A stretch of DNA of 57,398 nt from positions 62,001 through 119,398 of the forward strand of contig CAUYUJ010000031.1 of assembly GCA_963575745.1 (NCBI GenBank), written 5' to 3'. The DNA is from Prorocentrum cordatum. Lineage: Eukaryota. Positions 17,676-49,237 of this stretch are shown in pieces; position 1 is the first letter of the stretch, and each line of letters begins with the position of its first letter. The position numbers were made by a program, and so were the translations under genes. The notes beneath the pieces are model-generated. The model did not search any database. It was not told where the DNA came from and saw only the letters and a list, made by a program, of their open reading frames with translations.

Positions 17676-18689
17676 ACACACACAAACACACAAACACACG
17701 CACGCGCACGCGCACACGCACACGCACGCGCACGCGCACACGCACACGCACGCGCACACGCACGCGCACACGCACGCGCACACGCACACGCACACGAACG
17801 CGCACACGCACACGCACACTCACGCGCACACGCACACGCACGCGCACGCGCACACGCACACGCACACGCACACGCACACGCACGCGCACGCGCACACGCA
17901 CACGCACACGCGCACGCACACGCACGCGCACGCGCACACGCACACGCACACGCACGCGCACACGCACGCGCACGCGCACACGCACGCGCACACACGCACA
18001 CGCGCACGCGCACGCACACGCACACGCACACGCACACGCACACGCACGCGCACGCGCACGCGCACACACGCACACGCACAGACGCACACGCACACGCGCA
18101 CACGCACGCGCACACGCACACGCACGCGCACACGCACACGCACGCACACGCGCACACGCACACGCACACGCACACGCACACGCACACGCACACGCACACG
18201 AAGACGCACACGCACACGCACACGCACACGCACGCGCACGCGCACGCGCACGCGCACACGCACACCGCACGTGCACGCGCACGCGCACACACATGCGCAC
18301 ACGCACGCGCACGCGCACACGCACGCGCTCGCGCACGCGCCCGCGCCCGCGCACGCGCCCGCGCCCGCGCACACGCCCGCGCCCGCGCACGCGTTCGCGC
18401 ACGCGCACGCGCACGCTCGCGCACACGTGCGCACACGCACACGCACACGCGCGCACACGCGCGTACACTCGCGCACACGCGCGCACACGCGCGCACACGC
18501 GCACACGCGCGCGCACACGCGCGCACACGCGCACACACGCACGCACACGCGCGCCCACGCGCGCACACGCGCGCACACGCGCACACGCGCGCACACACGC
18601 GTACACGCGCACACACACGCACACACGCGCACACACGCACACACACACGCACACACACGGCACACACACACAAAACACACACACACACA

Positions 18690-18730
<41 letters not shown>

Positions 18731-19215
18731 CACGCACACACACACACGCTCGCACACACGCGCATGCACGCACGCACACGACGCACACGCACGCGCACAC
18801 ACACACGCACACGCACGCACACACACACGCACACACACGCCACACACACGCACACACACACACACGCACACACGCGCACACACACACACACGCACACACA
18901 CACACACACACGCACACACACACACACACAACACTCACGCACACACACGCACACACACACACGCACGCACGCACATTCACGCACACACACGCACACACAC
19001 GCACACACACGCGCACACACGCACACACACACACACGCACACACATGCACACACGCGCAAACACACGCACACACGCACACACACGCACACACACACAAAC
19101 GCACTCACACGCACGCACTCACACGCATACGGACGCACGCACACGCGCACACGCACACACACACGCACACACACGCACACAGGCGGCACGCACACGCACA
19201 CGCACACACACACGC
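17676..19215. repeat. Compound (CACG/CA/CACACG)n microsatellite, left block
   Basis: Directly visible; near-continuous purine-pyrimidine alternation. Confidence 0.97.
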
Positions 19216-19236
19216 CCGTAGCCATTTTGGCTCAAG
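19216..19236 (+). other. Genomic relic of the dinoflagellate spliced leader (21-nt core)
   Basis: Exact CCGTAGCCATTTTGGCTCAAG. The DinoSL consensus is DCCGTAGCCATTTTGGCTCAAG. No GT donor follows, so this is not an SL RNA gene. Confidence 0.95.
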
Positions 19237-20970
19237 CCTGCCTTGGGCGCCAGACAGGAGGCGTGTGTGCGTCTCTCTCAAGCCCCGTCATCTCGGCGGG
19301 CGCAGAGAGCGGCTCTCCCATCCCCCTGCCTCCGTGTCGCGGCCCCTGCGATGGAGGCGGCGTGCGACGACAGCAAGATTGGGCTCGGGGGGCTGCCCGA
19401 TGCTTGGCGGCCCGGCATGCGCCGCGCCCAGGAAGAGATCTCCTTGGGCCCGACGGCGGTGCGGTGAGCGGCCCGCCGCGGGCGTCAGCAGGCCTGTGAG
19501 GCCGCGCTGCGCGGTCTGGTGGCGGAGGCCGCCCTGCCTGGGTCGTGGCAGGGCCGTGAGCGGGCCGCCAGGCCCGCCGCGCGGCTGGCAGCGCCAGGCG
19601 TCGCAGAAATGCGGCCTGGCATGCTGCCGTGGCGCCAGCGGCAGGCTTTGCCCACGCCTGCGACGCCGCCATCTCGGCGGCGGCGAGCGGCCCCAGGCAG
19701 GGGGCCCCTGCCACATCCACCCCTCCGACAGCGCCGCGGCAGGTGGCGGCCACTGCGCCCGCCTAGCTGCGGAAGGAGGCGCCGCGATGGCCCGCGGGCT
19801 GGCTGGCGCAGGACAGCGCGGGGAAGGGGCAGGGCGAGGGCGACGAAGAGGATGAGGGCATAAAGGAGGCTTTCGAGTCGACAGACAAGGACTCCGCGCT
19901 CGCGGACCCCGTCCTAGTGAAGGAGGAGGCCTTTCGGCAGGGAGGCGAACGCGTTCGAGGAGCAGAGCTCCCGCGTGGCGGTGGCGATGGCGCCCTCGAG
20001 GACGAGGCGCGCGCCCCCAAAGGGGGGATGGGCGACGTCGAAGAGAGCGTCGACGAGACGGAGGGCGACCTCATGCCTGCCGCCTGGACCGCCATGGTGG
20101 CCGCTAGGGCGCCGAGGCGGGGATCGGCCCAGCCCTTCGCGCGGCGCCGTGCGGAGCTGGTCGAAGAGGCCATGGCGATCGCGCAGCGGATTCGCGCGCT
20201 CTTCTACGCCTGGTGGGAGGTCTGGCCGCGCGTCCGCGACGACGTGTGCCCGGCCGTGCCGTAAGCGCAGTGCGGCTTCGGCGACGACCTCGACGGCTCC
20301 TTCGGCGTGGGCGGGATGCAGCGGCCCTTCGAGCCGTTGGGCGCGCGCCCGCCGCCGCCGCTGCCGCCGCCTCCCCCCTCCGGCTTCGCCCGTGGCAGTG
20401 GCCGCCGCGAGTTCACGGCGGCCGAGTGGCAGGTGTTGAACGAGCTGGAGGAGAGCTCCCGCAGGGTGCTCCGCGGAAACAACAAGTACGATGACACATG
20501 GAGATAGCAGCAGAGTGCCAGCTGCGTGGATGGCCTCATGGTCGTCTGGACAGCAAGAGTGCCAGCTGCGCGGATGGCCTCGCAATCGATTGTCTGAGCC
20601 TTGCCTGCGGTCGCCGTCGCTGTTAGCAGTCGGCGCCGTGTTAGGAGTCGTGCTGCGCTCCTAAGGGGCTGTGCAAGGTTCTGGTTATGCCCCCCCCTCG
20701 GGGCCAGGGGCTGAAGGGGCCCGCCCGTGGGGCCCGGGGCTGGATGGGGCCGCGGAAGGCGTTCGATCCTTGCCTCGGGGCGCGGGGGGGGTGCAGCCTC
20801 AGCGCGGCAGCTCGGTGGAGGCAGGCTGCGCCTCCGAGTCGGCTCGGCAGGCGGCCGTTCGAGAGCCTTGTAGAGGCTCGGCAGGCGGCGAGCTCGAGAG
20901 CCCCGCGCAGGCCGCGGCTGCGGCGAGGCGCGGACTCCCCGCAGCGACAGGGCACCGAAAGCACCGGAAA
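19216..20970 (+). pseudogene. Decayed SL-headed retroposed insert of unknown product
   Basis: Begins with the SL. Contains broken protein-like frames (ATG 19351 MEAACDDSK...; 19917-20507 with an in-frame TAA at 20262-20264). Ends at GGAAA, after which the CA microsatellite resumes. Confidence 0.6.
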
Positions 20971-22840
20971 CACACGCACACATGCACACACACACGCGCA
21001 CACACACACGCACGCACAAACGCACACACACGCACGCGCACACGCGCGCGCGCACGCGCACGCACACGCACGCGCACGCGCGCACGCGCGCACGCGCGCA
21101 CGCGCGCGCACGCGCACGCGCACACGCACGCGCGCACGCACACGCACACGCGCACGCACACGCACACGCACACGCACGCGCACGCGCGCACGCACACGCA
21201 CACGCACGCGCACGCGCATACGCGCACGCACAAGCACACGCACAAGCACACGCACACGCACACGCACACGCACACGCGCACGCACGCGCGCGCGCACGCG
21301 CGCACGCACACGCACACGCACACGCACACGCACACGCACACGCACACGCACACGCACACGCACACGCACACGCACACGCACACGCACACGCACACGCACA
21401 CGCACACGCACACGCACACGCACACGCACACGCACACGCACACGCACACGCACACGCACACGCACACGCACACGCACACGCACACGCACACGCACACGCA
21501 CACGCACACGCACACGCACACGCACACGCACACGCACACGCACACGCACACGCACACGCACACGCACACGCACACGCACACGCACACGACGCACACGCAC
21601 ACGCACACGCACACGCACGCCCACGCACACGCACACGCACACGCACAGGCACACGCGCACGCACGCGCACGCGCACGCGCACGCGCACGCGCACTCACGC
21701 ACGCACGCGCATCGCACGCGCACGCGCACGCGCACGCGCACGCGCACGCGCACGCGCACGCGCACGCGCACGCGCACGCGCACGCGCACGCGCACGCGCA
21801 CGCGCACGCGCACGCGCACGCGCACGCGCACGCGCACGCGCACGCGCACGCGCTCGCGCACGCGCACGCGCACGCGCACACGCACACGCACACGCACACG
21901 CACACGCACACGCACACGCACACGCACACGCACACGCACACGCACACGCACACGCACACGCACACGCACACGCACACGCACAAGCACACGCACACGCACA
22001 CGCACACGCACACGCACACGCACACGCACACGCACACGCACGCGCACGCGCACGCGCACGCGCACGCGCACGCGCACGCGCACGCACGCGCACGCACACG
22101 CACACGCACACGCACACGGGCACGCGCACGCACACACGCACACGCGCACGCACGCGCGCACCCCACCGCACATGCACACGCACACGCGCACGCAAGCGCA
22201 CTCGCACGCACACGCGCACGCGCACGCGTACGCGCACGCACACGCGCACGCGCACGCACACGCACGTTCACGCGCACGGGCACGCGCACACGCGCACCCA
22301 CACGCACACGCACACGCACACGCACACGCACACGCACACGCACACGCACACGCACACGCACACGCACACGCACGCGCACGCGCACGCGCACGCGCACGCG
22401 CACGCGCACGCGCACGCGCACGCGCACGCGCACGCGCACCCGCACCCGCACACGCGCACACGCGCACACGCGCACACGAGCACACGCGCACACGCGCACA
22501 CGCGCACACGCGCACACGCGCACACACGCACACGCGCACACGCGCACACGCACGCGCACACGCACACGCACACGCACACGCGCATGCGCACGCGCACGCG
22601 CACGCGCACGCGCACGCGCACGCGCACGCGCACGCGCACGCGCACACGCACACGCGCACGCGCACTCGCGCACGCGCACGCGCACGCGCACGCACACGCA
22701 CACGCACACGCGCACGCGCACGCGCACGCACACGCACACGCACACGCACACGCACACGCACACGCACACGCACACGCACGCGCTGACGCTCACGCCCACG
22801 CTCACGCACACACGCAATCCCACGCACACACACACACACC
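20971..22840. repeat. Compound (CACACG)n/(CACGCG)n microsatellite, right block
   Basis: Directly visible, including a pure (CACACG)n stretch at about 21305-21588. Confidence 0.97.
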
Positions 22841-25127: not shown

Positions 25128-25974
25128 GGAGGATGAGGAGGAGGGGAAAGGAGGATGAAGAGGAGGAGGAGGAGGAGGAGGAGGAGGAGGAGGAGGAGGA
25201 GGAGGAATAGGAGGAGGAGGAGTGGGAGGAGGAGCAGGAGGAGGAGGAGGAGGAGGAGAGGAGGAGGAGGAGGAGGAGGAGGAGGAGGAGCAGAGGATGA
25301 ATGGGAGGAGGAGGAGGAGGAGGAGGAGGAGGAGGAGGAGGAGGGAGGAGGAGGAGGAGGAGGAGGAGGAGGAGGAGGAGAGGATAGGAGGAGGAGAGGG
25401 GAGGAGGAGCAGGGAGGAGGAGAGGAGGAGGAGGAGGAGGAGGAGGAGAGGAGGAGGAGGAGAGGAGAATGGGGGGAGGAGGAGGAGGAGGAGGACGGGA
25501 GGAGGAGGAGGAGGAGGAGGAGGAGGAGGAGGTAGGAGGAGGAGGAGGAGGAGGAGGAGGAGGCGGAGGAGTCGGAGGAATAGGAGGAGGAGGAGGGGGG
25601 AGGAGGAGCAGGAGGGGAGGAGAGGAGGAGGAGGAGGAGGAGGAGGAGGAGGAGGCAGAGGATGAATGGGAGGAGGAGGAGGAGGAGGAGGAGGAGGAGG
25701 AGGAGGAGGAGGAGGAGGAGGAGGAGGAGGAGGAGGAGGAGAGGAGGAGGAGGAGGGGAGGAGGAGGAGGAGGAGAGGAGGAGGAGGAGGAAATAGGAGG
25801 AGGAGGAGGGGGAGGAGGAGCAGGAGGAGGAGGAGGAGGAGGAGGAGGAGGAGGAGGAGGAGGAGGAGGAGGCAGAGGATGAATGGGGAGGAGGAGGAGG
25901 AGGAGGAGGGAGGAGGGAGGAGGAGGAGGAGGAGGAGGAGGAGGAGGAGGAGGAGGAGGAGGAGGCGGAGGCGG
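25128..25974. repeat. ~850-bp degenerate (GGA)n array abutting the 3' end of the minus-strand LINE
   Basis: Directly visible; the interruption GCAGAGGATGAATGGG recurs near 25290, 25655 and 25872. Confidence 0.95.
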
Positions 25975-26090
25975 TACGGCCAGACCGAACGAGTGCGCAG
26001 AGCGACAGAGAGGGGAGAAAGAGAAAGACAAAGGCCGAGGGCGCGCAACCCGACGATTAGACGGAGGACAGCCCGAGGCGCAGCCTCAGG

Positions 26091-29000
26091 CTACCGCAGA
26101 CGAAGCCAAAAGCAGGCATCGTCTGTGGGGAAGAGGGGGCGGGGCTCGCCCCGCCACTCGCCCGAAAGGGGATCTTTACCCGCCTCAAGGCGCTTTAAAT
26201 ATGTGGCGTCCTTGCTGGATGCAAAACCCTCACACTGGCCCCACAAACGGGAACGAGGGGCCGACGGCTGGGCCCTGGCGCCGCAGCGGTGGCAGAATGC
26301 AAGGGTCTCGCCAGCAAGACTAATATGATGCCCTCTAGCACTACAGGGCCCCACAGGGCCATGAGCGGGGAGAGGGACCTCAGGGCGGGCGGCATCACGC
26401 GCAACCCAGGAAGGCGCACCAGGACCTCCAGAGGTCCGAGGGCGCTTGCAGGGCGGGGGCCCCACAAGCACGCCAGAGCCCGCAGGCCCGACAACGCCAG
26501 ACACGGAGGGCGACGCCCCCGTCCGAGGCGCCTTCGGACGCGGGCCCTCCAGGGGCCCACCCGCCCTGCGGTCCCTCACCGTCCTGGCAGGAGCGGGGGG
26601 GGGTGGCGGAGGGGGGGGCTCATGCGGGGCCAGGGAGCGTGCCTCTTTGGCGCGCCGACACGCCTCCCCCAGCTCAGCATCCAACTGATCCTCACCCCCA
26701 CCATCCACCTGAAACCTCACCCGCTTAAAGGCCAGGGACCGCTCAAGACCCTCGGTCGCGATGGGCGGCGACCTCTCTGGTCCACTTGAGGCTTCGACGC
26801 TTCGAAGCTCCAAGGAAGGGCGAGCCTCAGAGGGGGGGCCCGAGACGCTCCCGCTCGGCCCGCCAGGGCCCTTCGGCCCAGCAAGGGCCGCAGTCGAGGA
26901 AGGCTCAGGCGAAACACCCTCGAGGCCCCAGAGGGCCGCCGCCTCCGCGACCCTACAAAGACCCTTCCTAAGCCTCGCAGCACCTTTCGGCGTAACCGCG
27001 TAAGCGGAGCAACGATCACAACTGTACTTCTTACCCCTCAACCTCACTCGATGCAGGAGCTGAGGAGGGCAGGCCTGCCCGCCTGCGGGTGAACCCGCAC
27101 CGCGGCGCCCGCGCCCAGCGCCGCTGCCTGCAGCGCCAGCCGCGGTCAGCTGCGCCCAGCGGCCGCGCAGCTCCATGTCGCGCCTCAGTGGGACGTCCAC
27201 GCGGTCGGGTGCCACGGTGCATTCGAAAATCATCCTGGACGAGTTTGCAATCCAGGTCGCGACCGATCTGAGCGTGCAGAGCGAGTCGGTGTAGCTCTTG
27301 ACAATGGCCTGGGGAAGGTCGTGCAGCTGCCGACCCCTCTTAGCCGCTTGATCTGCCAGATCGTTGCAGCGGCGATGCCATGAGTCCTCCCTGGAGTGGC
27401 CCTTGACGTACGAAAACCGAATCGGACTCTCCAGGTCTCCAGACATGGAAAAAACCACCATGGTCCTCCAACTGGTGAAATAGGCGACGCCAAAGATCCA
27501 CATTCTCACGCCTCGGATTTAGACACCAGCGCTTGCCACGCGCCAGCCCCTCAAGCAAAGGCATGTCGTCCGTGAAGATATGGGGCGGGGCCACACCGAC
27601 GGACAGCACCTGAATCACTGCGAACAACTCACCACGAGCGGACGTCTGGCGATGGCCAGGCAGCGGCCCAAATACCGCTCCGTGGTAACAAGCATCCCCA
27701 ACAACCACGAAGCCCCAGCCCGCACGGTCAGCAGCGTCCCAGTGGAGCAACTTCCTGCACGACCCGTCAGTGAACACCGAGCCCGTGACGACAAAATGTC
27801 CATGGGCCCGAGTTCCACGATCATAACACCAAACACCTGAGTCGTTCCTGGGCGGCAAGGCAGGAAGAAAGGAGTTGGGGTAAAGCCCACGCGAGTAGAG
27901 CAAATCACCAGGTGGTGCCCTCCTTGCCGCGTCCAGGGTGGCCTCCGACACCGCATGCTCCCGAATGCCGTCAAACACGCGGCATTGCCAATACCTGTGG
28001 TGGGCGGTACCTTCGACACCAGGACAGTTCCTGCATTCAGGGCAGTGAGCGTAAGCGTGTCGGTGCAAGCGCTTCTGCGTGAAATGGCCACCCACGACCG
28101 CAGTGCGTAACGCAGCCCGAGCCAGCGGATCCAATGCCCAACGCTTGGCCTTGGGACCAGGGCAAAGCAACGCACGTATGGGACTCAACCATGCACCAGC
28201 GGGGTCCTTGTGAGACGGGCCATCAAGTTCAGGCATCACCTCAGGCCTGGCAGCCCATTGGTACCAGCCTACGATCTCATAGTCCTTGAGCGCCAGCCAC
28301 TTGACCCCTGACGGGGCCACCTCGCGTAAGTCCATAGTAATACCAGCACGAGTACGGACTCGAAACGCTGAGGAGACTGTCCAGCCCAAGAAAATCACAG
28401 GCCGCGCAAAAGCACCAGCTGGGCCAGCCACTAGCTTCCAGCTCTCCTGCCAGTCAACCGAGGCCACCTTCCAGTATTGAGAGCGCCATGCCGTCTGCAG
28501 CGTAAAATGGTCAACATCCCCCGACTGAATCAACAAAGCCCAGTTGAAAACAGGTCCAACAATGGCCAAAGTCGCTGGTTGAGACTCAAAGCCCCCTTCC
28601 AACCTCGATGCAATCCAGTGCGACGCCCCTGAGGGAATGGCTTGCCAGCCCAGCTTCGCCAGGGAAGTCGCGCGCTTGATCAGGTGCGGCCCGGCGCCCA
28701 GAATGCCCAAGCCGTAGGTAATAGCGGGGCCAGCTGCTGCTTTGGGAACCTGTCTGAACTTCGCTCCAAGGTGGCTCAGCCTCTTGAAGTGCCTTGCCCG
28801 CTTCAATACGCGCCCGACGCGACCCCGAAGCACTCGGGCACGAGCGCTCTTGCCAGCGGCCGCCTCGAGGCCCAAGACCTGCAACCAGGGCCTGGCCTGA
28901 AAACCGTATCTCCGCAGAAGACGAGCCGCAGCGGGGGCTGCGGAGTCATCAGACGCGGCGAGGAAAGCCTTTGACTTCGCCACGGGGGGGCCGAGATCCT

Positions 29001-31600
29001 GCAGGGTGTCACAGAGCAAAGCCACCGCATCGGTGGCGATCCTGCACGCATCCGTCCGTCTGGCCACCACTTGCAGAGTTAAATCGTCAGCGAAGATGTC
29101 CAACGAGAAAGAAAAACCCATCTGAGCAGGAATGCCGAGACCGACCGTGCTGACGAAATCATCCATTGACGCGAGCATCAGTAGCTGCGCAAAAGCCATG
29201 GCAAACTTGCACCCTGGAAGGACGCCCTGAGACACCGTAACGGCATATGACGAAGCCTGCTGCTACACGAGTCTGCGAGGCGCACGATACATGCTCAGCG
29301 CACAAGAAAGCAGCTGACGCGGAAATGCGTGCTTGGCCGCCGCCGAGATAAGCCTCCGCCAACAAATGCGGTCGAAGCACTTCTCGACATCAACAATGGC
29401 CGTCACGACACCTTGCTCCACCGCCAGTGCAGCTTCAGCCCTCACCAGGGCCCGCGAGGCCACGTCCAGAGTGGTCTTGCCAGAGGCCAGGGCGAAAAAC
29501 GGCCTGTCGTGCTCCAGCAGCCAGACCCGCAGCTGCCTGCTGCGGACCTGCGACCACACACGGTAAGTCGCCTGCAAGAGCGCGATGGGCCGCCATCCAC
29601 CTTTGGGCTTCGCCAAGAGCACAATGTGGACGGCGGCCAGCTGCGTGGGCCAACGCTCCCAGTGCTCCGCCAGCCAGAGCACATAGATGAGCAGTGAGAG
29701 GGTCTCGTCCGCGAGCAGGCTGAGGGAGCGAGGCGCCAGCCGGTCAGCACCTTGCCCAGTGTGCCACTTGAAGGACTTTGCCGCCGCGCGCAGTTGGCCA
29801 ATCTTGGGCACAGGCAGAGAAGCGCGCGGCAGGCGTCGAATATCATCAAAGAGCTGCGCCGTGTCAGGGAAATCCGCGAGGTGCCTCACCGCATATTCAT
29901 CGGGTCCAGCAGCAGCCCCATGCACCTGATCACGGGTGGGGATCACTGACGCAGAGCGTGCATTCCAAATGCGAGACCAACCATCCATTTGATCATCCGC
30001 AACATCCTGAGCCAAGGTAGATGGCTTCGCATGCCGAACCCCTTGGGAATGCCGAACACCAGACGGCTTCGTGAAGCTGAACAGCGGCTTGATGCGAGAC
30101 TCACGACAGTTGGCGGCCCACCGTGCGAACTCTCGCCTGCGCTCGGCCATCGCCGCCTGCTCCAGGTCGTCAGCGAAAGAGCGAAGCCAACCAATGACAA
30201 AATAGACCGACTCCATCAGCAGGCGCTGAATGCCAGGGAGATCACCTCCCATGAGACCAGTAGTGGGCAACCCAACGTGGTCTCCTGACTGCAACAGGGC
30301 CGCTCGACCCAGCAGCACCTGGAAAGCGTCGGGGGACGCCTCCACGACCTCCCGTGCCAGCGGCAAGATGCCCCGCAGCGTGGCCACCACGTGCTGGCAC
30401 TCAAGCGAGCGAAAAGACCTTTCGGCGCCCAGAGAGACGAGTCTGTCCAAGCGCCGAAGTAAATCCAAGGGCTGCAGCCTTGCACGTAGCGCATCGTCAG
30501 CAGCTTGGGCCAGGCGCCGAGCACGCCGAGCGTCAGGAGGGGCGGCAGGTCTCGCAGCTGCTGGCGCTCCTCCAGCTTGGCGCCACCTGTGGGCCACCTT
30601 ATCAGCACGACCGCAGTAGCGAGGAGCGTCGCTCGCAGGGACACCATAACGCACCAGCAACTCCTCCTCCACGATGTTCATAAACTCAGCGTACAGGTGG
30701 TCCAGCCGCGCCTGAGCCTGAACAGGAGTCGCATCACCTCCAAGTACCGCATCCTCCTCGATGAGTTCGCGGGTGCGATCCGCCAGCACAGGCGTGACGT
30801 CCTCGGTCGGGGCCGCCTTCGGAAAAGCCTTCGGCGCCCGCAGGACGAGGAACTTGACCGCCTTGGCCCGCGCGTCGAGGGACGTCACCATCGGGAAATG
30901 CGGCGATGCAGGCCGTCCGTCCACAGGCACAGGCTGCGCCAGCGAGCTCGCAATGGACAAGCTGGCCAGCCAGTAGTCAATGGTCGAGTAGGCACCCTGG
31001 GCGCTGCGGCACGTGCCCACAGGGAGCTGCCTTGCAGGAGCAGGGGGCCTCGCGACCACTGCAGCAGGGATGAAGTCTAAGAAACCACACTCCCCAATAT
31101 GCTTCGGATCACAGTTGAAATCGCCCGCCATCAGAAACGGCCTGTTCCAACCCCGCAGCGTTGTAGCGATGTCATAGAGCCTCATCGCATTCACGTCGCT
31201 CCATCGCCCAACTTCAAAGTAGCATGACAACAGCACAAGACCACCTCTGATACCAAAATCCGCATGACACGCCACACAGAAACTCGGAATCAGGTCAAAG
31301 CCTTTCAACCCAGGCAGCTCCGTCACGCTGATGTGACGCCGAACGAAGAGACCCACTCCAGCAGAAGGCCGCCCCGACTCCAGACGTCGGCACGATGAAA
31401 TAATAGCATGCCACCCCGGTCGAGCCGCCCAGCCTTCAGCACGCCGACGGTCGTCACCATCGATGCGCAGCTCCTGAGCCGCCACAACCTGGATGCCAGG
31501 ATCGCAGTGGGCCAAAAACTCCCTGCACGAAGTCCAGGAAGAACCGTTGCATGTGACGAAGGAGGCCTGTACACGGGCGCGGCCTCGACGCCCACGGCAT
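26091..31600 (-). pseudogene. LINE-A ORF2: AP endonuclease, reverse transcriptase, CCHC-like finger, RNase H and C-terminal extension; one in-frame TAG (29263-29265) and a frameshift near 27450
   Basis: APE: FVTCNG, VAAQELR, SAGVG, MAGDFN, TIDYWL, SPHFP. RT: LLAKPKGGWRPIALL, VDVEKCFD, QGVLPGC, IFADD. CRNC..HHRYWQC. RNase H: VFTDGS, QTSARGEL, IFTD, VKGH, NDLADQAAK. ORFs 29263..32646 and 27340..29235 are in the same frame. Confidence 0.9.
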
Positions 31601-32566
31601 CTAGCCTTCCATGTCGGCCTCGCCTGCGTCTTCCCAGGCGGCAGCGGCGGTTCCCCCGCCTGCGCGAAACGCGTATGCAGCTCCTGGCGGCAGCGCGGCC
31701 GCGGGGGGAGCTGCGGCTGCAGGCGAGGAGCCTGCTGGGGGTCCTGCTCCAACGGCGGCGGGGGCAGCTGCGGCTCCTGGGGGCGTGAGGGCCGAGGCGG
31801 CAGGGAACGCTGTGCCAAGCGCTGCAACCTGCTGCCCGATCGCCTCCAGGACATGGATGCCCTGGCCGCTGGCGACGCGCGCGGGGGCAGTGGCGAGCGT
31901 GGACTGAAGGCCGACCAGCGTGGAGGCGAGGGCTGCCAAGTCCACGCCGCTGGAGCTCGCCGCCGAGGCCGCCGCGGCCTGCTGAGCAGCCTGGACCTCG
32001 ACCTCCAGGTTCTTGACCTCCGAGTCGGCCACGCCCTGCTGCCTGCGGAGGTCGTCGACCTTCGCAAGGGCCACCGCGAGGTCGTCCGCCAGCTGGGAGG
32101 CCCGAGCACGTGCCTTTCCCACGCGCTGCTGGAGGGAGACCAGGAGCTGCTCGGGAGGCTGAGCACGGCGCTCCTCCGCCTCCAGGGCGGCGAGCTCCTG
32201 TCGAGCTGCCTGGACGAGCGGGTGCTCCTCGGCGTAGCCGAGCTTCTGAAGAGCGGCCAACCCTTGCCTGGCGCGCACGACTGCGGGCCCAGCAGGTTCT
32301 CCATGAGCAGCGCCATCTGGAGGACCACCACGAGCACGAGGGGGGGGGCCAGAGCGGCGGCGGCGGCCCGCGGAGGTCGACCTCGCGCCCTGCTCCGAGG
32401 AGGCGGGCGACTCACGGACCGTGCGCCCAAGGCGGTCTCTGCCGCACTTCCAGCACGTGTCACGGCTGGGGAAGTTGTTGCGGAACCCGCAGAGCCTCGA
32501 TGCCGCACATGGCCAGTTCTGCTGCTGGGGCGGGGCGGCACCTTGCTTGGGCAACTGCTGGGCCAT
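31601..32566 (-). CDS. LINE-A ORF1 (321 aa): N-terminal RanBP2-type zinc finger, coiled coil and Ala/Pro-rich tail
   Basis: ATG at 32566. WPCAASRLCGFRNNFPSRDTCWKC approximates W-x-C-x(2-5)-C-x3-N-x(6-7)-C-x2-C. Heptad-like segment LVSLQQRV...VEVQAAQQ. Lies directly upstream of ORF2. Confidence 0.8.
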   Translation of the reverse strand: MAQQLPKQGAAPPQQQNWPCAASRLCGFRNNFPSRDTCWKCGRDRLGRTVRESPASSEQGARSTSAGRRRRSGPPPRARGGPPDGAAHGEPAGPAVVRARQGLAALQKLGYAEEHPLVQAARQELAALEAEERRAQPPEQLLVSLQQRVGKARARASQLADDLAVALAKVDDLRRQQGVADSEVKNLEVEVQAAQQAAAASAASSSGVDLAALASTLVGLQSTLATAPARVASGQGIHVLEAIGQQVAALGTAFPAASALTPPGAAAAPAAVGAGPPAGSSPAAAAPPAAALPPGAAYAFRAGGGTAAAAWEDAGEADMEG

Positions 32567-33483
32567 GCCAAGGCTGCTCCCTCGGTCGCCGTGATGCCCA
32601 GCCAGCCTGGTGCGGGCCGCGGCCAGCCGCAGCGCGAACCTCGCACGAGATCTCAGGCGGCGAGCCCGCCGATGCCACGCAGGGCTGCGCGAGCGGTCTC
32701 TCGACGCCACGATTGCAGGCGCCCGCAAGCAGCGGGCAGCCGGCGCGGGGGCAATGGCGCGGGCCCCGCGGCGCCCGCCCGCAGGCAAAACGGCTGCGGG
32801 GGGGCGTGGGGGGGGGGGCCACGGTGCCAAGCCACCTAGGAGGAGGAGGAGGAGGAGGAGGAGGAGGAGGAGGAGGAGGAGGAGGAGGAGGAGGGAGGAG
32901 GAGGAGGAGGAGGAGGAGGAGGAGAGGAGGAGGAGGAGGAGGAGGAGGAGGAGGAGGAGGAGGAGGAGGAGGAGGAGGAGGAGGGAGGGGGAGGAGGAGA
33001 GGGCGGAGAGGGGGAGGAGGACCCTGTGAGGAGGATCCTGGGCCAGGTCCCCTGCCTGTCCATATAGCCCTCCCTCTCCGCCTCCTCCTCCTCCTCCTTC
33101 TCCTCCTCCTCCTTCTCCTCCTCCTCCTCCTCCCTCCTCCTCCTCCTCCTCCTTGCGCGCAGGAACCTGACAAATTCATTGTCTTGCACAGCTGTGTTAT
33201 AGAGCTCGGGCCTCTTCATTTTCGTCACCGTCGGCCTCTTCTTATTTCGTTGCGTCCCTGGCCCTCCTGGGCCGCGCACATGCCGCCGGCCATGATTTGC
33301 GCCCCCCCCTCTTGGACGCCCCCCTCTTGGCCGACCCTGAAAGACAGAAGCATAAAAATGAGTTTTTGGAGTTCCGCGCGGATTGCTCGATCAGGCGATG
33401 GTCCTCCCTGTGGCGGCGCCCCCGGCGCCGCCTCCCTGGCGTGCTTTCCGCGCGCCTGGGAGGAGGGTCTGGCTCCGATCCCA

Positions 33484-33839: not shown

Positions 33840-33861
33840 TCCGTAGCCATTTTGGCTCAAG
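33840..33861 (+). other. Genomic relic of the dinoflagellate spliced leader (full 22 nt)
   Basis: Exact TCCGTAGCCATTTTGGCTCAAG; the first T is shared with the end of the target-site duplication. Confidence 0.97.
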
Positions 33862-40620: not shown

Positions 40621-42485
40621 ACAGTTTATGTATTCCAGATTTTGTAATAAAGGGAGGGGGGTCTCATTTCGGGGGGGGGTCTCTTCCAGGCTATCTTGGA
40701 GGGCCTGGGGGGTCTGGGGACTATGTTTTGGAGGGTTCTCCCACGGGGGAGGTCTGAAATGGCTTGTCTTGGAGGGTCCAGACCCCCTCCCTTTTATTAC
40801 GAAATCTGGAGTATATGCAATGTTCTCTTGCTCTAATCCTGGATCGTCCTGCGGAGGAAAAAAAGAAAACATGCACGAGATCGGAAAACTGCACGGGGGA
40901 GGGACGTCCGAGCGATGGCGAGACGAGGATAAGCCCGTTCCAGAGCGTTCCGCAACGCTCGGAGCGCTCCGGACATCTTTGAGAAGGCCGCGGCGCCCGA
41001 GACGTCCTCTGGAGACGCCGGATCTAAGGGATTCTCGATTTCGCCTCGCCCGATTTGATCCTCGTCTTGACTTCGTCCTGCACTGCGCGGTCGAGCCCGG
41101 CGCGCAGCACGGTGGAGCGCAGGGCCGTTGCCAGACATGCTCGCGCCGTGACAACAGAAAATCGGGACGGGAGGTTTTCGGACGTTTTCGTCGGTTCTCG
41201 ACGGCTTTCCAGCCTCGGGATGCTCTGCAGCAGTTGCGCCTCGCCGAGGGCGTTCCGGGGGTGCCCGGATCGCCCCGAACGACCGCCGGAGAGCCGAGTT
41301 ATGGGTTCTAAAAACAGGCATGCTCGCGTCGTGAGACAATCAGGATGTGATGGGGGTTCACAGTGTTCGGCCTCTCGGGGTCCTCGCCAGGCCCCAGGAT
41401 AGTAAAGCATTTTTTGAAGGCGAAATACCGGCCTTAGGGAAAAGGTGGGCCGCGTCCCCTGAAGTCCCGATCTTCTCCCTGGGGCAACTATTTTTGGGGT
41501 TTCTGTGGTTTGCACGGCATGCTTCTAAAGCTTTTTTGATCGAGGCCGTCTTGTTGGAACCCACCGTGTTCTGAGGACAATGCGCTTGTTGTTAGAGCAT
41601 CTCGCTTGTCCTAAGAACATGTCGTGGTAGGCCCATAGGAATGCCCAGACGGTCGGTCCCTGCTGAACACACGGGGTTCAAGTAGAGGGTGTTGAAGGAT
41701 CTCGTCGCATCGACGATGCGGCTCGATGTGTAGCAGCGTTGGTGCTGTCAGTGGCGTTTGCCGCGCCGTGGGTGTCGCTTAGGCCTCACCTGGTTTCACT
41801 CTGGGCTCCACCCTGATTGGTGTACCCGTAGGGATTGGCGCTTGCTGCAGCTCCTGAATCCAGGGTCCTTAGTCGCGGCCCCCCCCCGTGGCAACTGCTG
41901 GGGAGATGGTGCCGGTGTTGCATGTCAGGGTGGAATGTAGCTTGGCATAGCTGATCTCGAATGTCTGCGCAATTTCATCAGCTCGCTCCTGAGCCAAGGC
42001 TGGTTATAGCGGTATTGTTGGTAATTGGGCTCGAGCTAAACGGTGTTGTGATGATTTCGTGGACCGCGCTCGTTTTGATTTCGTTTCGCAGCAAAGGCAG
42101 AACGAAGACAGAACGAAGGACCATTATGACAACACGAGGACGAATAACACTGTTTATCTCGAGCCCTGGTTGGTAAACGGTCTCTAGGTCGTCAGGGGTG
42201 CTTTTAGACACGCTTGTCGTAGGCTGCGGCAGCCAAGTGTGCGCCCCCCCTGCTGGGCAGAGCAGTTGCGCAGGCCCGCCGTCGCCCGAGAAGGCTCCAT
42301 GGACAGGGGGATTTGCGGCCTGGTGGCTTGGGCTGCAGGGGTACACGATGGTGGCCAAATTTTCCACCACCACTACCATAAATGGGACGGAGAAGAAGGG
42401 AGGAGGGGAAGGTCCTCCTCCTCCTCTTCCTCCTGCTCCTCCTCCTCCCCCTCCTCCTTCTCCTCCTCCTCCTCCTCCTCCTCCT

Positions 42486-42507
42486 TCCGTAGCCATTTTG
42501 GCTCAAG
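42486..42507 (+). other. Genomic relic of the dinoflagellate spliced leader (full 22 nt) at the 5' end of a LINE
   Basis: Exact TCCGTAGCCATTTTGGCTCAAG immediately after (CCT)n at 42413-42485. Confidence 0.97.
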
Positions 42508-42626
42508 GGTGGTCTGCGCTACCCGCTCGGCCTGGCTCCCCCCGACCCGCTCCTCGGGTCTTCCTGCTCCCTCTCCCTCGGGCCGGGCGCGCCCGGGTGC
42601 TCCTCGTGCCTCTCCCCGCTCTCGCC

Positions 42627-43669
42627 ATGGCTGAGGTCGCCGGTGTGGCAGCAGCTGTGAACGGCCTGCCTGCCCTGCCTGGGCTGCCTCCTGCTCCTGC
42701 CCCCTTGGGGGCCGTGGGGGAGGGCGCGCCTCCGCCCAGTGACTTGACGATGATAGTGAAAGAGGGCTTTTCCTCTCACAAAGCAGAGGTTGAGTTGTTT
42801 CGACAGCAGATGACAGTGATGGGCACCAACTTCGATCGAATGCAGGAGGAGTTCGCGGAGATGAATCGTCGCTCGGAGGCTCGCTGGGCAGAGATTAAGA
42901 AATCACAGGATGCAGCGATCCACCAGGTCTCGGTTGACACAGATGCGAAGTTGGCGGCAGTTGTGGCAAAGATCGACGTTCAGTTGCAAGAGCTCCAGCA
43001 GAAACTCTCAGCAGGTTCGTCGACTCGTGCCGATTCGGAGTTCGAGCTCGTAGGAGGTGATGGGGAAGGAGGGCGGCGTACGAGGTTGAGGACGTTGGGC
43101 CCTGACCAAGCCAGTGCTACTCGTCTCATCGTTCTAGGTTTCGAGAAGCCCCTGCTGGAAGCGTCCCTCAAGGAAGCGGTCGCCCCGATAGTCGCTGCGT
43201 GTAGTCCAGCTAGCTGGTGAGGGACCGATCGTTCGAGCATGCTCCCTCACGCGGAAGGTGATCCTTGACTTCCCCAGTACTCTGTCGTGCACGGCGTTCT
43301 TCGGTAAGAGCCAGACCATCGGTAAGATTGTGTACTAGAACCCGATTGATAACCAGGGCTGGGAGCTTCGCGTGCGTCGTGACTTGCCCCCCCGCTAGCC
43401 GTCAGTTGTTCTACTACCAGGGACAGATTCGTGCGATCATCGGGAAGGTCTTGGGGGAGAAAGGGTTCCAGGTGGGCAGCAACGGACTCGGTGGTCAGAT
43501 ATACGGTCTCATCACGGCTACCCACCCAGTGATTCTGGCGAAGGTCACGGTCCTTGAGTGCGGTCGCCCCGAACTCGTTCTGATCCCTGAGGCCCTCGGA
43601 ACGTTCGGAGTTAGTGAGCACGCAGTATGCATTGTCACCCTTTTTGATCAGATTCGGCCCTTTGTGTGA
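42627..43669 (+). pseudogene. LINE-B ORF1 (coiled coil plus possible RRM-like half), with about two frameshifts near 43215 and 43340
   Basis: GCCATGG start at 42627; coiled coil NFDRMQEEFAEMNRRSE...VQLQELQQKL; RLIVLGF motif. Protein-like continuation GEGPIVRACSLTRKVILDF, then the 43265..43669 frame. Confidence 0.7.
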
Positions 43670-46600
43670 GGGCCCCAGTTGTCCTGGAGTCCCCCGCCTC
43701 GGGATTGCTAGTGCCCTGCCTGGCCTTTCTTGTCGGGTCCCTGGTGGTTCGGGCCCTCCCTGGGATGGTGGGCCTGTCGGGGGAAACCATCGGACCCGTG
43801 TGACGAATTGCCAGGATAGTGCTCAGCCAGCCAACCAGTGTTTTAATCTGAATTCAGGAGGACCTTATACCCCTGGTGACCCGTCCTCAGGAGCGAACGG
43901 GGTGTTTGCTTCCTCTTCTGCGCTTACCTTGTGCTCTTGGAATGCACGTGCTCTCTTCTCATCGTGCTCTACTTCGTCTCCGCTGGCAGCTCGGCGTTGC
44001 ACGCAGATGTATGGTCTTGTTGGCAGGTTTGACGCGGTGTGTTTACAGGAGACTCATGGCACGGTATCTGATGTGGAGATGTTACAGCGTGATGAACGTT
44101 GTCGTAGTGCAAGCGTTCACCATTCGATGATCGATCCGAGGGCTGGGGGCGGGGTGGTTACTGTCATATCGAGTAAGCTGGCTTCGCAGTTCGAATCGAT
44201 CACGCCGTTTCCGTTGATTGCTGGCCGTGTTCTCGCCTCGCACCTGAAGGGACGTTGTGGGGACCTAGTGATTGTTAATGTGCACATGCCGAATACTTCT
44301 GATCCAGTTGCGATGTATCGCAGGTACCTGTGTGTGATTCAGGCTTTCCTTCCATTGGCTGCACACACCATGTGCTTGATTGCTGGGGATTGGAACTTTA
44401 TGGAGGTGGAGGAGGGGCGGTTTCGGACTGACGGCACGTGGTTAGCAGGGGACAGGGAACATACGGATGCTTTTCAGTCTATTTGTGGGTCCTGGGCTGA
44501 GCTGTACCAACCAGATCCGACACGGCGTGATGTGTTCCAGGGAGAGGTCCGTGGGGTTGCCCGTCTGGACCGCATCTACACCTCTCTCTCGGCCCCTGTC
44601 TTGAATGATTTGGCGGTGACGGTAAATACCCTGGGGCATGCCGTGAAGACCTTCGCCTCGTCTGACCACATCCCAGTTGTGGCCACTGTCGCTCTGAGGA
44701 TGCCATCTGCATTACCCACCCATATTCCTAAGTGGATTTCCCAACATGGAGCTTACCATGAGTTGTGTACCAGCGCCATTATGGAAATCGGCCAGGATCT
44801 GACCCCTCGGGAGAAACTGGCTCGGGTGAAGGAGATTTTCTGGCAGATGGTCCCGCTGTTCAAGGCTCGGCTTCGGTCGAAGCCCCCGAAAGAGAATTGT
44901 GAAAAGCTCAATTTTGCTATGATGGCCTTTGTATTTTTTTTTTTTTTTTCTTTTTGATGTTTTTGCTCTTTTTATTTTTTTTTTTTCATTTTTTTTTTTT
45001 TTTTTTTTTTTTTGTTTTTTTTTTCTTTTTTTTTTTTTTTTTATTCTTTTTTTTTTCCTTTTTTTTTTATTTTTTCTCATTGTTTTATTTTTTTGTCTTG
45101 TTTTGGTATTTTTTTTTTTGTACTTTTTTTTTTGTTTTTTTTTTATTTATTATTGTTTTGTTCTTTTTTTTTTCTTTTTATTTTTTTTCTTTTTTTTTTT
45201 TCTTTTTTGTTTTCTATTTTTTCTTTATTTTTTCTTTTTTTTTTGTTTTTTTTATTTTTTCTCTTTTTTTTAATTTATTTTTTATTATTATGTTTTTTTT
45301 TCCTTCTATGATGGCTTTCCGTGGGTGGCGTATAGGCAGGTTCGACCGGTGTGTGCGTGCGATCCGTGCGTATCCTCGGTTGCTTCAGTACTTTGATCCA
45401 GACCGTGAGAGATGCTGGGATATAGTTGGCCTGGGTGCTTGAGTGCAGTCTCTGAAGGATGCTTGGTATGAGTCGGAGGAACGGGCGATGGACGGGTGGG
45501 AGGATGACGAGAAGTCTAAGGCTAAGGCCATGGCCCGCTTGCAACACCTTCGTCGTGCTTGGTCAAAGATGCGACGGCGTTGCGGGCTCTCTGGGGTCCT
45601 GGACAGTTCTGGGCAGGTTTGCCCTTCTCCGGCGGCCTTTGCTGAGGCCCTTCGGGACCATTGGCAGGTTGTCTTTGCCGCCAAGGAACCTGATCGGACC
45701 TTTGGCCTGAAATCCTCGCTCATGCCCGGCCGATCCAGTTGGACCCACTACATTGGAAGTTGGAAGTCGATGGTTTTATTGAGCGAGCCCGATTTAAGCA
45801 TCACTCTGCCCCCGGGGAGGATGGCATTCCATATGGATGCTGGAACGCTGAGGGGGCCGCTGATGTTTTATTCGGCGTTTATGATGAGATGTACCAAGCG
45901 TCGGGGGGTACTGTTTCGGCGTGCATGCGTCGAGGAAGGATGTGTTTCCTGTCCAAAGACCTCAAAGACGACGAGAACCCCGCAGTCCTTTTTCGGTCGC
46001 CTGATAAGACTCGCCCTCTCACGCTTGCGAATACCGATGCGAAGCTCCTGAGTGACGCCTTCTCCATTGGCCTCCAGAGGGCTGCACCGACAGTGATTGA
46101 TCCGATCCAGCGGGGGGGGGGGGGTCCCGCGTCGTGGGCTCCTTGACAACGTGGTTGAGATTGAATGGTGGGGTGTTCGTCAGAGGCTTACTGGTGGGGA
46201 CCGCTCGGGCATTCTTTTCACGGACTTTAAGGCTGCGTTCCCCTCTCTGATCGTCTCCTGGATCTTGGCGGTCTTGGAGGCCATGGGTGTTCCTGGTGAA
46301 GTTTGTGGTTTCTATCGCGAGTTGTACCGTGACAATGTGGCTGTAATCCACTTCGCGGGGACAGCTGGTGTTACTTTTTCGGTGGAGCGTGGGGTGCGGC
46401 AAGGTGATCCTGCTTCGATGCTCCTCTTCGCTTATGCGTTAGACCCAGTATTGCGTTGGATGAGGGCCAAGCTCACTGACCATGTCCCTCGGATTAGAGC
46501 ATGCGCCGATGACCTCTCTTTCTGCCTCCCCGACATCCTGACTGACCTCCAGCCGACGCTCTCGCTCCTCCGTAAGTTGGAACATTCTGTGGGACTGGGG

Positions 46601-47915
46601 CTGAACATTCCCAAATGTAAGGTCCTGGTGATTGGCTCGCTTGATCCTGAGAGATTAGTTGCCCACCTTCGTTCCAAGGGGAGTGAGTACTACCGCACTG
46701 TGTTTGTTCGCGTGGTTCTTTACTTGGGGTTCTGGCTGGGGCCTGGGGCTCTGGACAAAGTATGGAGCAACGCCATCCCCAAGTTCTGGATGACGGTTCG
46801 AAGGCTTCGTGGGCTTGGGCTTGGGCTTCCACAGACCATTCGCCTTTTCCACTCACACTGCATGTCGATTCTGGCGTACCAGTTACAACTCTGTCCAGTG
46901 ACCAAGGCGCTCCGTAAAGCGTATAATGAGGCCTTACAGGTGATTACTGCTGGTCCCCGCCATGCCTTCTCGAGGGAGATGCTGACGGGCTTGCGTGCGT
47001 TGGGAACCTCTCTAGAATGCTTGGATATCGATTGCTTTTCCAAAGCCATCAAGTTTCGGGTGGTTATGTCGTGCTCCAGCATCGATGCTATCCAGTATGA
47101 GATGGAGTCGTTGACGGTTTCCCTGGACGACGATGATTTCATTCCCGCTCGACTGTCATGGCCCTGGTGGAAGTCTTCCTGGATCAGGACTGCGGTGACT
47201 GAAGTAGGCAACTTCACGGTCCCGTCTCTGGAACCTATTCCCAAGAAGTCCTTTCAGAAGAAAGCCATGCGCAAGCTCCGAGGGCTCCGTGACCCCACTG
47301 TTCCCCTCCGCACCATGGTTCAGAGGGTGTCCAAGTGGGTGGGTCCCGACCGTTTTTCGGTAGCTGACTTTCAGGTGCTTGCCCAGAGGATGCGTAAAGT
47401 TGAGAAGGACAGCACGATGCACCTTGTCACGGGGGTCCTTAGAGTTCTCTGCCGTGGGGTCTGTACCTCCAGCCGGCTGCGTACCACGGTGGAAGGATGT
47501 GCGTTTGGGTGTCCTCTGGAAGCGGCTGACGACGACCGGAGGCATGATCGCGTGTGCCCAAAGTTGAAGGCTGGGTTGATTGACATATTCCCCCGTGGAG
47601 GACTCCTGAGGTCTTGGACCGCGGCTCTAACAGGTGAGGATTGGCTCCTCGCTCTTTGCTGTCTGGGGCCACAGTGGGGGAGGTCACGTGACCTAGCGGG
47701 GCGTGCCCTTATTAGATTTCGTTCTGGCCGCGCATAATGCTCGCAGGACCGGCTCGGTCCAGCCGGGGGAGTTTCTTATTAAAGCTAGGCTTCGGCAGCT
47801 GTCTCGTCGGCACCGCAAGCTTAATGAGGCGCTTCGGGCGCTGCGTCTGGCTGCTGCTGCTGCTGCCCCTCCCCCTGCTCCTCCTGCTCCTCCTGCCGTG
47901 CCCCCCCTCTCCTGA
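43614..47915 (+). pseudogene. LINE-B ORF2: AP endonuclease, reverse transcriptase and CCHC-like knuckle; disrupted by a T-rich insert, TGA 45440-45442 and frameshifts near 45730, 46120 and 47705
   Basis: APE: CSWNARAL, VCLQETH, VNVHMP, IAGDWN, ARLDRIY, SDHIPV. RT: SAPGEDG, RPLTLANTDAK, DFKAAFPS, GVRQGDPAS, CADD (normally YADD), YLG. Knuckle: CAFGC..HDRVC. Confidence 0.92.
44927..45305 (-). mobile_element. ~380-bp degenerate poly(A) insert (poly-T on the + strand) with a 10-bp target-site duplication
   Basis: CTATGATGGC at 44917-44926 and 45306-45315. Removing the insert and one copy restores the reading ...NFAMMAFRGWR... Confidence 0.8.
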
Positions 47916-49237
47916 GTTGCCGTGTCCCCCTTTTTGGTCCGCCCTTTTCCCTGTGGCCCCCTAGGTATTGGTCCATGCATGAAGCTGTTAGAGTGTGATG
48001 TGACCCTGGAGGGTCTCTCTGGTTGGCTGGCTGGTTTTCCGAGGTTTTTTCCTGATGATGTGCTTTCTCTGCGTTCTGTTACGTTTCTTGGTTAATTCAG
48101 GGCCCCGTGTTGTCGCCAGGGTTGTGGGCTCTGCCCAGTGCTCAGTGTGACCCTCTCTGCCGGCAGGTGAAGATGGAGAGGTGCAGCTAGAGAGAGTCCT
48201 CTCTCGCTGCGCCGCCGCCCCCCTGCTTTGGGGGGGTGCCTCTCTTGCCGCGCCGCCGCCCCCCCGCCTCTCTCCGCCGCCCGCCCCGCGGCCGCGCCGC
48301 CTCTCTCGCCTGCCCGCCTCTCTTGCTGTCTATGAGCTACAGGTTCTCGGGCGGGCGGAACGGTCTGGTTCGCTCGAGCGTCGATGGAGCGTCGCTCCTG
48401 TAGGGTAGGCAGGCCTTCCCGCGACGCCGAGCCGCGGCGCCTCCAGACACCCGTTGCGTCTGGCGCGGTGGAGGCCCCCCCCCCCTCTGCCGCGCCCCGC
48501 CGTCGCCCTCAGGTTCCCGACGAAGTTCGAGGCGCCCCCGCGGCCGCTCCGAGCGAGAGAGTGTCCCCTCTCGCCCTCAGGTTCCCGACGAAGTTCGAGG
48601 CACTTTGGAGGTCAGCTGTCTTGTTTCCCTTGTTCGGTGTGTTGGGGTCTCGTTTTTGGGGCGCGCCCCTTTTGTCTGCTCCTGCCTGCTGCTCTGTGGG
48701 TTGGGCCCTCGGTCAGCCGAGGAGTGAGTGTGGCATGGGAAGGATGCTCGAGTGTGTGAACCCCTTTTGGACGGTGTGCCGTGGGGGAGCGCGCGCCCGC
48801 CAGGGATCGAGTACACTCGGAGCAGAGTACCCGCCGCCGCTTCTCTTTGCCCTGCCCCTGCCGCTGCTCCTCCCCCGTCCTTTGCATGTATGATAGCACG
48901 GTGCCCAGTGCTCGTTGACATTCGGTGTGCGCGCTTGCGGTGGAAAAAAAAACTCCTCCTCCTCCTCCTCCTCCTCCTCCTCCTCCTCCTCCCCCTGCTC
49001 TCTCCTCCTCCTCCTCCTCCTCCTCTTCCATTGCGGCGCACGTAAATCGACTGGACGAAAGAGTGGCCGTTCGCCGGTGGTGCGGGCCCAATGGGGTCTC
49101 CCCGATCGTTGAACGCGAAGGAGTAGCAGCGGACTGCGCGGCCAGGTTTGGCCACCCCGCGTCCCCCGTCGAGTCGCGCGCCAAATATCAATCTTGCCTA
49201 GGTCACTCTTGCGCGTGACCGAGTAAGTAGGGATATA

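Follow-up and report, generated by a model that had tools for sequence, protein, structure and literature searches.

The stretch of DNA analysed here, called the window in the following, comprises 57,398 nucleotides from the dinoflagellate Prorocentrum cordatum (NCBI GenBank assembly GCA_963575745.1, contig CAUYUJ010000031.1, positions 62,001 to 119,398 of the forward strand) and contains a long interspersed nuclear element (LINE) whose first bases are those of the dinoflagellate spliced leader (SL; DinoSL). This element, termed LINE-1, extends from 42486 to 48952 on the + strand, and a second LINE of the same window, termed LINE-2, lies at 25972-32837 on the - strand. The first 22 bases of the inserted LINE-1 unit (42486-42507, +) read TCCGTAGCCATTTTGGCTCAAG and fit the DinoSL at 22 of 22 positions, the consensus being DCCGTAGCCATTTTGGCTCAAG as printed in the accessible text of PMC7245778. 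Three exact sites of the 21-nt SL core are found in the window, all on the + strand (19216, 33841, 42487), which compares with 0.01 sites expected from shuffled sequences and with three sites in none of 100 shuffles. The leader is followed by a pyrimidine-rich 5' untranslated region (5'UTR) of 119 nt (42508-42626, +), delimited by alignment to the metagenomic relative L001 described below, by two broken open reading frames (ORF1 and ORF2), by a GC-rich 3' region (47829-48943, +) with an exact 31-nt direct repeat (48503-48533 and 48571-48601, +), and by a run of nine A residues (48944-48952, +) that forms the 3' end of the unit. This A9 run is the longest A run of the window and represents the kind of poly(A) remnant by which DinoSL-tagged retrocopies are recognized. 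On the 5' side a (TCC)n microsatellite (42413-42485, +), the target of the insertion with its pyrimidine strand in element sense, directly abuts the SL, and on the 3' side a (CTC)n tract of the same microsatellite (48953-49029, +) directly abuts the A9 run, as delimited by TRF and by reading of the 5' flank. Having the same repeat on both flanks, the element would have any target-site duplication merged into (CCT)n.

A sequence-only reading of this DNA had described an exact 22-nt SL 119 nt upstream of the ORF1 start codon, then ORF1, an ORF2 with apurinic-type endonuclease (APE) and reverse transcriptase (RT) domains, a 3' region and A9 within (CCT)n, and had seen no tandem relic behind the leader; the sequence read directly, Pfam and TRF confirm this arrangement, and a scan behind the LINE-1 SL returned no further CCATTTTGGCTCAAG at up to three mismatches. 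A second copy of LINE-1 is not present elsewhere in the window, and neither a ribozyme nor any other Rfam family reaches the gathering score in the window, including the 5' end of LINE-1. The only sub-threshold Rfam matches in 42300-43000 are microRNA-like ones to an (AGG)/(CCT) hairpin upstream of LINE-1, which arise because this inverted arrangement can fold. An (AGG)-rich stretch precedes (CCT)n upstream of both LINE-1 (42385-42470) and LINE-2 (33153-32838), and in this inverted arrangement a hairpin can form.

ORF1 (42627-43669, +) encodes a protein similar to L1 ORF1p with coiled coil, RNA recognition motif (RRM)-like and C-terminal domains, as judged by tblastn, alignment and a model of the L001 ORF1. 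Its ATG lies at 42627, and the homologue P0026 begins at the same methionine (MAE...NGLPALP). The homologues P0006 and P0007 match three frames in succession (42756/42819-43208, 43216-43392, and 43388-43666; tblastn), with +1 shifts near 43215 and 43390, and a TAG stop codon at 43336-43338 stands where the homologues carry Q. In ORF2, the APE domain (43935-44669, +; Pfam PF03372, Exo_endo_phos, E 2e-10, residues 118-362 of the frame 43584-44954) is followed by the RT core (46205-46705, +; PF00078, RVT_1, E 3.7e-9, frame 46097-47734), so that APE and RT succeed one another on the same strand in the order that defines APE-type LINEs, within a frame that is broken in LINE-1. The protein P0001, 72% identical, aligns to ORF2 in three frames over 46045-47828. 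A secondary insertion of 376 nt (44930-45305, +; sequence and TRF), 313 of which are T, interrupts ORF2; it is bounded by 13-nt direct repeats (44917-44929 and 45306-45318) identical at 12 of 13 positions, and the ORF2 protein resumes past it (...NFAMMAF / MMAFRGW...). With 83% T, and correspondingly A-rich on the opposite strand, the insertion resembles tail-only or A-rich retroposition in antisense orientation. Further lesions of ORF2 include a TGA stop in frame at 45440 and at least three frameshifts, those near 45715, near 46110 (in a G13 run) and near 47705. Two of the shifts in LINE-1 sit in homopolymer runs and are possibly sequencing errors, which the stop codons and the insertion cannot be. 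Close to the C-terminus of ORF2 a Cys/His motif, C-x3-C-x10-H-x3-C, was read from the translation by eye at approximately 47499-47558 (+), P0001 showing C-x3-C followed by C-H-x3-C at the corresponding stretch; it may correspond to the knuckle of L1/Tx1-type elements. LINE-1 is, in consequence of these lesions, an end-to-end complete but dead, decayed copy, and the description of the element as full-length in the sequence-only reading holds for its two ends, which are both complete, but not for its ORFs, which are those of a pseudogene.

The assignment of LINE-1 to a LINE class depends on the part of the element that is considered. The fold of ORF1 was taken from the intact L001 ORF1, which was modelled with 21 aligned homologues at a mean pLDDT of 77.9 and is predicted to form a helix of about 100 residues (48-148), a disordered linker and two alpha/beta domains. 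In a Foldseek comparison of this model with the PDB, ranks 1-10 were all held by human LINE-1 ORF1p (E 1e-5 to 2e-4), generic RRMs coming next, and the TM-scores to the human protein were low (0.18-0.41) because the domain orientations differ. Pfam reported no ORF1 family above its cut-off in LINE-1. When the RT was compared by sequence with solved structures, the best matches were R2 proteins (E 1.9e-11) and no L1 ORF2p was retrieved at E up to 0.01; the APE domain had no match among solved chains by sequence. The predicted ORF1 architecture, and it only, thus supports an L1-like element, and of the earlier label L1/Tx1-like the ORF1 part is upheld by the fold match to L1 ORF1p. Protein searches with LINE-1 queries gave five matches for the RT part, three for the SL, 5'UTR and ORF1 taken together and one for the APE part, and a profile search gave 38.

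The observation that carries the interpretation beyond the window copy comes from a metagenome scan seeded with ORF1, which used a two-row alignment and returned a single locus, contig L001 (1,687 nt). Its ORF1 is intact (367 aa) and 48% identical to the N-terminal part of LINE-1 ORF1, and L001 and LINE-1 therefore represent distant lineages with a common junction. The 5' end of L001 consists of 16 nt of unique sequence, then (CCT)11, then stacked SL-derived units. The outermost unit is the SL minus 2 nt (CCGTAGCC--TTTGGCTCAAG), lost inside the T-rich core; the middle one is an exact 15-nt relic, the same CCATTTTGGCTCAAG as searched for in the window, truncated after the SL-internal AG (GTAG); and the third unit of 19 nt is followed by GTGGTCAGTGTACCCGCTCGGCCTGGC, the start of the 5'UTR (GTGGTC...TACCCGCTCGGCCTGGC). 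Directly past the SL-derived units, the 5'UTR start of L001 and that of LINE-1 are identical at 26 of 29 aligned nucleotides. When the 19-nt unit is laid ungapped onto SL positions 3-21, 12 of 19 positions match and all 7 differences are transitions; 12 matches were reached by 277 of 50,000 composition shuffles of the unit, and 12 matches together with 7 transitions by none. On this comparison we read the unit as a probable old, decayed SL. Relics truncated after the SL-internal AG are the signature of a DNA-encoded SL that was transcribed and trans-spliced again, according to the accessible parts of PMC7245778, PMC12014239, and PMC5585692, and such a tandem truncated relic, a further mark of DinoSL-tagged retrocopies, is found in L001 and not in the window copy. 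The sequence-only reading had allowed for an SL-LINE junction unique to the window copy; this is not the case, as the one other 5' end available (1/1), that of L001, is SL-headed as well.

Taken together, these data make it likely that LINE-1 is a decayed, end-to-end, APE-type, L1-like LINE that was reverse-transcribed from a trans-spliced, polyadenylated mRNA and that belongs to a family with repeated SL cycles. That the transposition intermediate carried the SL, as had been proposed from the window alone, is supported because the unit that a single microsatellite and the A tail delimit includes the SL. A polyadenylated LINE mRNA would receive the 22-nt DinoSL at its 5' end by trans-splicing, and full-length cDNA synthesis on this SL-capped mRNA would write the leader into DNA, which would account for the SL as the first 22 bases of the element; the cDNA would then be inserted into a (CCT)n microsatellite. 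The SL-headed genomic copy would be transcribed, trans-spliced anew and reinserted, and with repeated rounds SL units would become stacked as in L001, one round of which would have used the AG inside the resident SL as acceptor. The single SL of LINE-1 may stem from splicing at the final AG of the SL already in place or, alternatively, from use of the original acceptor, which immediately precedes GGTGG at the 5'UTR start, and transcription of new copies may start outside the element, by co-transcription with surrounding DNA, or at the T-rich motif of the SL. The sequence-only reading had proposed that the element could be promoter-independent, being cut from read-through transcripts and capped by trans-splicing. 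Judged from the two sequences, the junction lies at the SL exon end and is common to two distant copies, one lineage of which stacked further SLs by way of the SL-internal AG. We infer that the mRNA of the LINE-1 family is regularly SL-capped and that SL-headed copies are able to act as templates. The recycling of SL-headed copies postulated in the sequence-only reading finds its evidence in the stacked units of L001, the middle one cut after the SL-internal AG, which imply that SL-headed copies were re-transcribed, re-spliced and re-inserted; L001 would record at least one further cycle from an SL-headed template, probably two. The LINE-1 family thus appears to copy itself from trans-spliced mRNA.

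A second common feature of the insertions is their target. LINE-1 and L001 (2/2 family copies) are both placed within (CCT)n with the pyrimidine strand in sense, and so is LINE-2 (25972-32837, -; Pfam, sequence, TRF), an unrelated LINE with APE, RT and an RNase H-like part (APE E 4e-5, RT E 2e-6, RNase H-like match below the cut-off) and long open frames of 1129, 640, and 475 codons, which is embedded on both sides in (CCT)n in its own sense orientation. Counted strictly, and with the tracts flanking the LINEs included, the share of (CCT)n in the window is 0.79% on the + strand and 2.24% on the - strand. That all three LINE insertions sit in (CCT)n in sense orientation is, by count alone, far from random. 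The association of LINE-1 and LINE-2 with (CCT)n suggests target specificity, and the tract possibly serves as polypyrimidine tract for the splice acceptor. LINE-2 has no A tail, and its 5' end reads (CCT)n-AG-GTGGC; this AG-GTGGC start resembles the GGTGGTC start of the LINE-1 5'UTR. Its candidacy as a relative of LINE-1 was rejected, its proteins having no detectable similarity to those of LINE-1. An SL-like 21-mer 39 nt inside its 5' end (32799-32779, -; 15/21) was likewise set aside, being at chance level with 0-3 such matches in 20 simulations; it is possibly, but not necessarily, a decayed relic. A tentative idea, to which we give a rather low probability, is that insertion into (CCT)n belongs to the way in which these elements secure their expression, the tract before an AG constituting a ready-made 3' splice site that is rebuilt in each cycle and dispenses with an internal promoter. 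The AGs behind (CCT)n would be the GTAG or the terminal AAG of a reinserted SL and, in LINE-2, the two bases with which the element itself begins (AG-GTGG), and a transcript running through the repeat would be trans-spliced exactly at the start of the element, giving a LINE mRNA that has a cap and a defined length and can be translated. If this were true, one target would have been adopted convergently by two unrelated families of LINEs within a single 57-kb window.

Several points weigh against a family that lives by repeated SL cycles. LINE-2, seemingly complete at both ends, carries no SL within three mismatches, so that SL heading is not general for the LINEs of the source genome. The 5' ends examined for the LINE-1 family are those of two copies, one of which, LINE-1, is dead, and L001 could stem from a DNA- or an RNA-derived assembly. 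A gapped local alignment of the third unit of L001 to the SL is marginal, its score being reached by 1,022 of 20,000 shuffles, and the LINE-1 junction carries one extra G compared with L001 (CAAG-G-GTGGTC vs TCAG-GTGGTC), for which reason the two junctions are homologous to within 1-2 nt and not identical. That 38 of 38 homologous proteins lack a translated 5'UTR or SL may be listed here as well, although it is neutral for SL heading because gene calls begin at Met. The first and second of these points lend themselves to the one serious rival, in which master elements with their own promoter and an outron maintain the family, and SL-headed daughters are dead on arrival, the SL being a by-product irrelevant to upkeep: the LINE-1 copy is indeed a pseudogene, and LINE-2 lacks an SL and still has both ends complete. 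We nevertheless regard this as unlikely, as L001 stacks up to three SL-derived units over an intact ORF1, and SL-headed copies would therefore have completed at least one round, and probably two, of expression, re-splicing and reinsertion; moreover, the oldest unit of L001 is far more decayed than the others, from which a long persistence of the SL-headed lineage follows.

Other alternatives grant the SL a place in the element and differ in how it came there or in what it does. The window copy taken by itself, single and without a relic, would agree with a one-off chimera, in which the RT switched template from the LINE RNA's 5' end to SL RNA or a different SL-capped mRNA, U6-L1 chimeras being the model. 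Such an event is very improbable here, since LINE sequence is joined to the precise end of the SL exon without SL-intron sequence and since the distant L001 has SL-derived units including a classical truncated relic at the homologous junction. Insertion of LINE-1 in or beside an SL RNA gene, as in the trypanosomatid elements SLACS, CZAR, and CRE, would also put SL sequence at the border of the element, and yet it can hardly be credited: (CCT)n lies on either side, the UTR of the element follows an SL that is whole, no remainder of an SL gene is present past A9, no Rfam family matches, and the endonuclease is of the APE type. The remaining alternative concerns function, the TTT(T/G) motif making the reinserted SL a portable core promoter and not just an acceptor in read-through transcripts. 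This has been put forward as a hypothesis for dinoflagellate retrogenes (PMC5585692, in the accessible text), and both the window SL and the middle unit of L001 have kept the TTTTGG core intact. However, a transcript that starts downstream of TTTT could not be re-spliced at the GTAG located upstream of TTTT, and the middle unit of L001, cut exactly after GTAG, therefore needed transcription from further upstream; in addition, the outermost SL of L001 has lost its 2 nt within the T-rich core. We consider the portable promoter to be rather improbable and retain the cycle through SL-capped, trans-spliced mRNA as the preferred explanation.

Besides LINE-1, the window contains further SL-headed DNA. 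A unit of about 1.75 kb at 19216-20969 (+) begins with a 21-nt SL, the preceding base being C, ends with ...ggaaa and interrupts a single array of (CACACG)n (17677-19215 and 20970-22839); Pfam found no domain in its long frames, and it is another retrocopy in a microsatellite. The third exact 22-nt SL (33840-33861, +) lies outside repeats, and an ATG about 75 nt downstream of it opens a short frame. Additional SL-headed relatives of LINE-1 were sought in several scans. ORF1 scans of viral contigs and of genome contigs returned 0 relatives, and a scan with a 17-nt 5'UTR motif gave chance matches only, an SL piece or a LINE protein being present in 0 of 125 loci. An exact-SL scan of viral contigs yielded 119 stretches with 134 distinct SL sites, a LINE protein being next to the SL in 0 of 134, and no LINE of the LINE-1 family was present anywhere in these loci; the absence of LINEs at these sites is uninformative because the median GC content of the contigs is 21%. 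The contigs concerned (L002-L120; IMG/VR, mostly labelled GVMAG) carry the exact 21-nt DinoSL core in AT-rich DNA of this composition, an A preceding the SL in 127 of 134 sites after an AT-rich stretch. The loci read as examples show a short leader and an ATG downstream, and one of them has three SLs 50 nt apart. Possibly, these SLs are leaders encoded in the DNA where genes begin, be it in giant-virus-like bins or in an AT-rich host genome.

Massive retroposition of SL-capped mRNAs shapes dinoflagellate genomes, and the source of the enzyme and this source's own life cycle have remained undescribed. The LINE-1 family would join both, as an autonomous LINE that follows the same SL-capped route as the retrogenes that such LINEs possibly made, and in which trans-splicing, instead of a ribozyme or an internal promoter, would set the 5' end. 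Should this be general, it would explain how LINEs can be expressed in genomes with apparently few gene-specific promoters. Stacked relics of unequal decay would provide a built-in counter of cycles, censuses of SL-relic retrogenes would take in LINE copies, and SL-primed cDNA libraries would offer a direct route to capture active elements.

The closest known system is the DinoSL-relic retroposition of genes, for which the accessible text of PMC5585692 describes the AG of the SL as acceptor for re-splicing and SL relics as helping retrogenes to be expressed again. DinoSL-tagged retrogenes and the LINE-1 family have in common the DNA-encoded SL at the 5' end, the A tail, relics cut after the SL-internal AG and re-splicing at AG; in contrast to these retrogenes, the recycled unit here is an autonomous retrotransposon with ORF1 and APE-RT and not a host gene copied in trans, and in the published work on DinoSL retrogenes, as far as its accessible text goes, LINEs figure only as presumed source of the enzyme. 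LINE-1 extends the known retroposition from genes to an autonomous LINE. Song et al. (PMC5585692) report, in the part of their article available to us, that the term 'RNA-dependent DNA replication' is enriched among SL-relic genes; SL-headed RT genes were therefore probably seen in bulk in that study, and the gene lists behind this Gene Ontology enrichment may contain SL-headed LINE copies. Neither an SL-ended LINE family nor a trans-splicing-dependent LINE cycle was found in the literature, supplements excepted, among sources accessible in part that include PMC3229502, PMC3942190, PMC8045281, PMC11453091, PMC5890265, 10.1101/783902, PMC10666404, PMC7245778, PMC12014239, PMC5585692, and PMC9651163. 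The supposition of the sequence-only reading that such a life cycle is new accordingly stands for the SL-headed LINE, of which these texts gave no description, but not for the SL AG as re-splice acceptor and the re-expression of relics, which the accessible text of PMC5585692 already presents for retrogenes.

Among other parasites of the same hosts, a dinoflagellate RNA virus carries the DinoSL in its genome or transcripts, which was termed 'molecular mimicry' (Levin et al. 2017, as related in the accessible text of PMC9651163). Like LINE-1, this virus is a genetic parasite with the host leader at its 5' end; unlike the LINE-1 family, it is an RNA virus, and the source as available gives no evidence of an iterative stacking of relics. 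L1Tc and ingi resemble LINE-1 in being autonomous LINEs of protists whose mRNAs are generally trans-spliced, and from their internal promoter Pr77 abundant unspliced transcripts arise (PMC1874656 and PMC8190864, accessible parts). By this account L1Tc and ingi avoid the SL, whereas the LINE-1 family carries it. Within the SL RNA genes of trypanosomatids reside SLACS, CZAR, and CRE, which borrow the promoter and the first SL bases of the gene. Their transcripts, like that of LINE-1, begin with SL sequence in an organism that uses trans-splicing, but the LINE-1 insertion comprises the whole SL and has (CCT)n as its target, with no SL gene on either side. Some LINEs have their 5' end defined by a ribozyme similar to that of hepatitis delta virus, and from these LINE-1 differs in having no Rfam ribozyme at its 5' end. 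With the L1/Tx1 group, finally, the LINE-1 family shares the coiled coil, RRM-like and C-terminal domains of ORF1, the combination of APE and RT, the A tail and a simple-repeat target (2/2), and perhaps the C-terminal Cys/His motif, and the surveys of Kojima and Fujiwara are said to include target-specific elements of the Tx1 clade that insert into microsatellites. Unlike members of this group with an internal promoter, LINE-1 would have its 5' end set by a trans-spliced leader.

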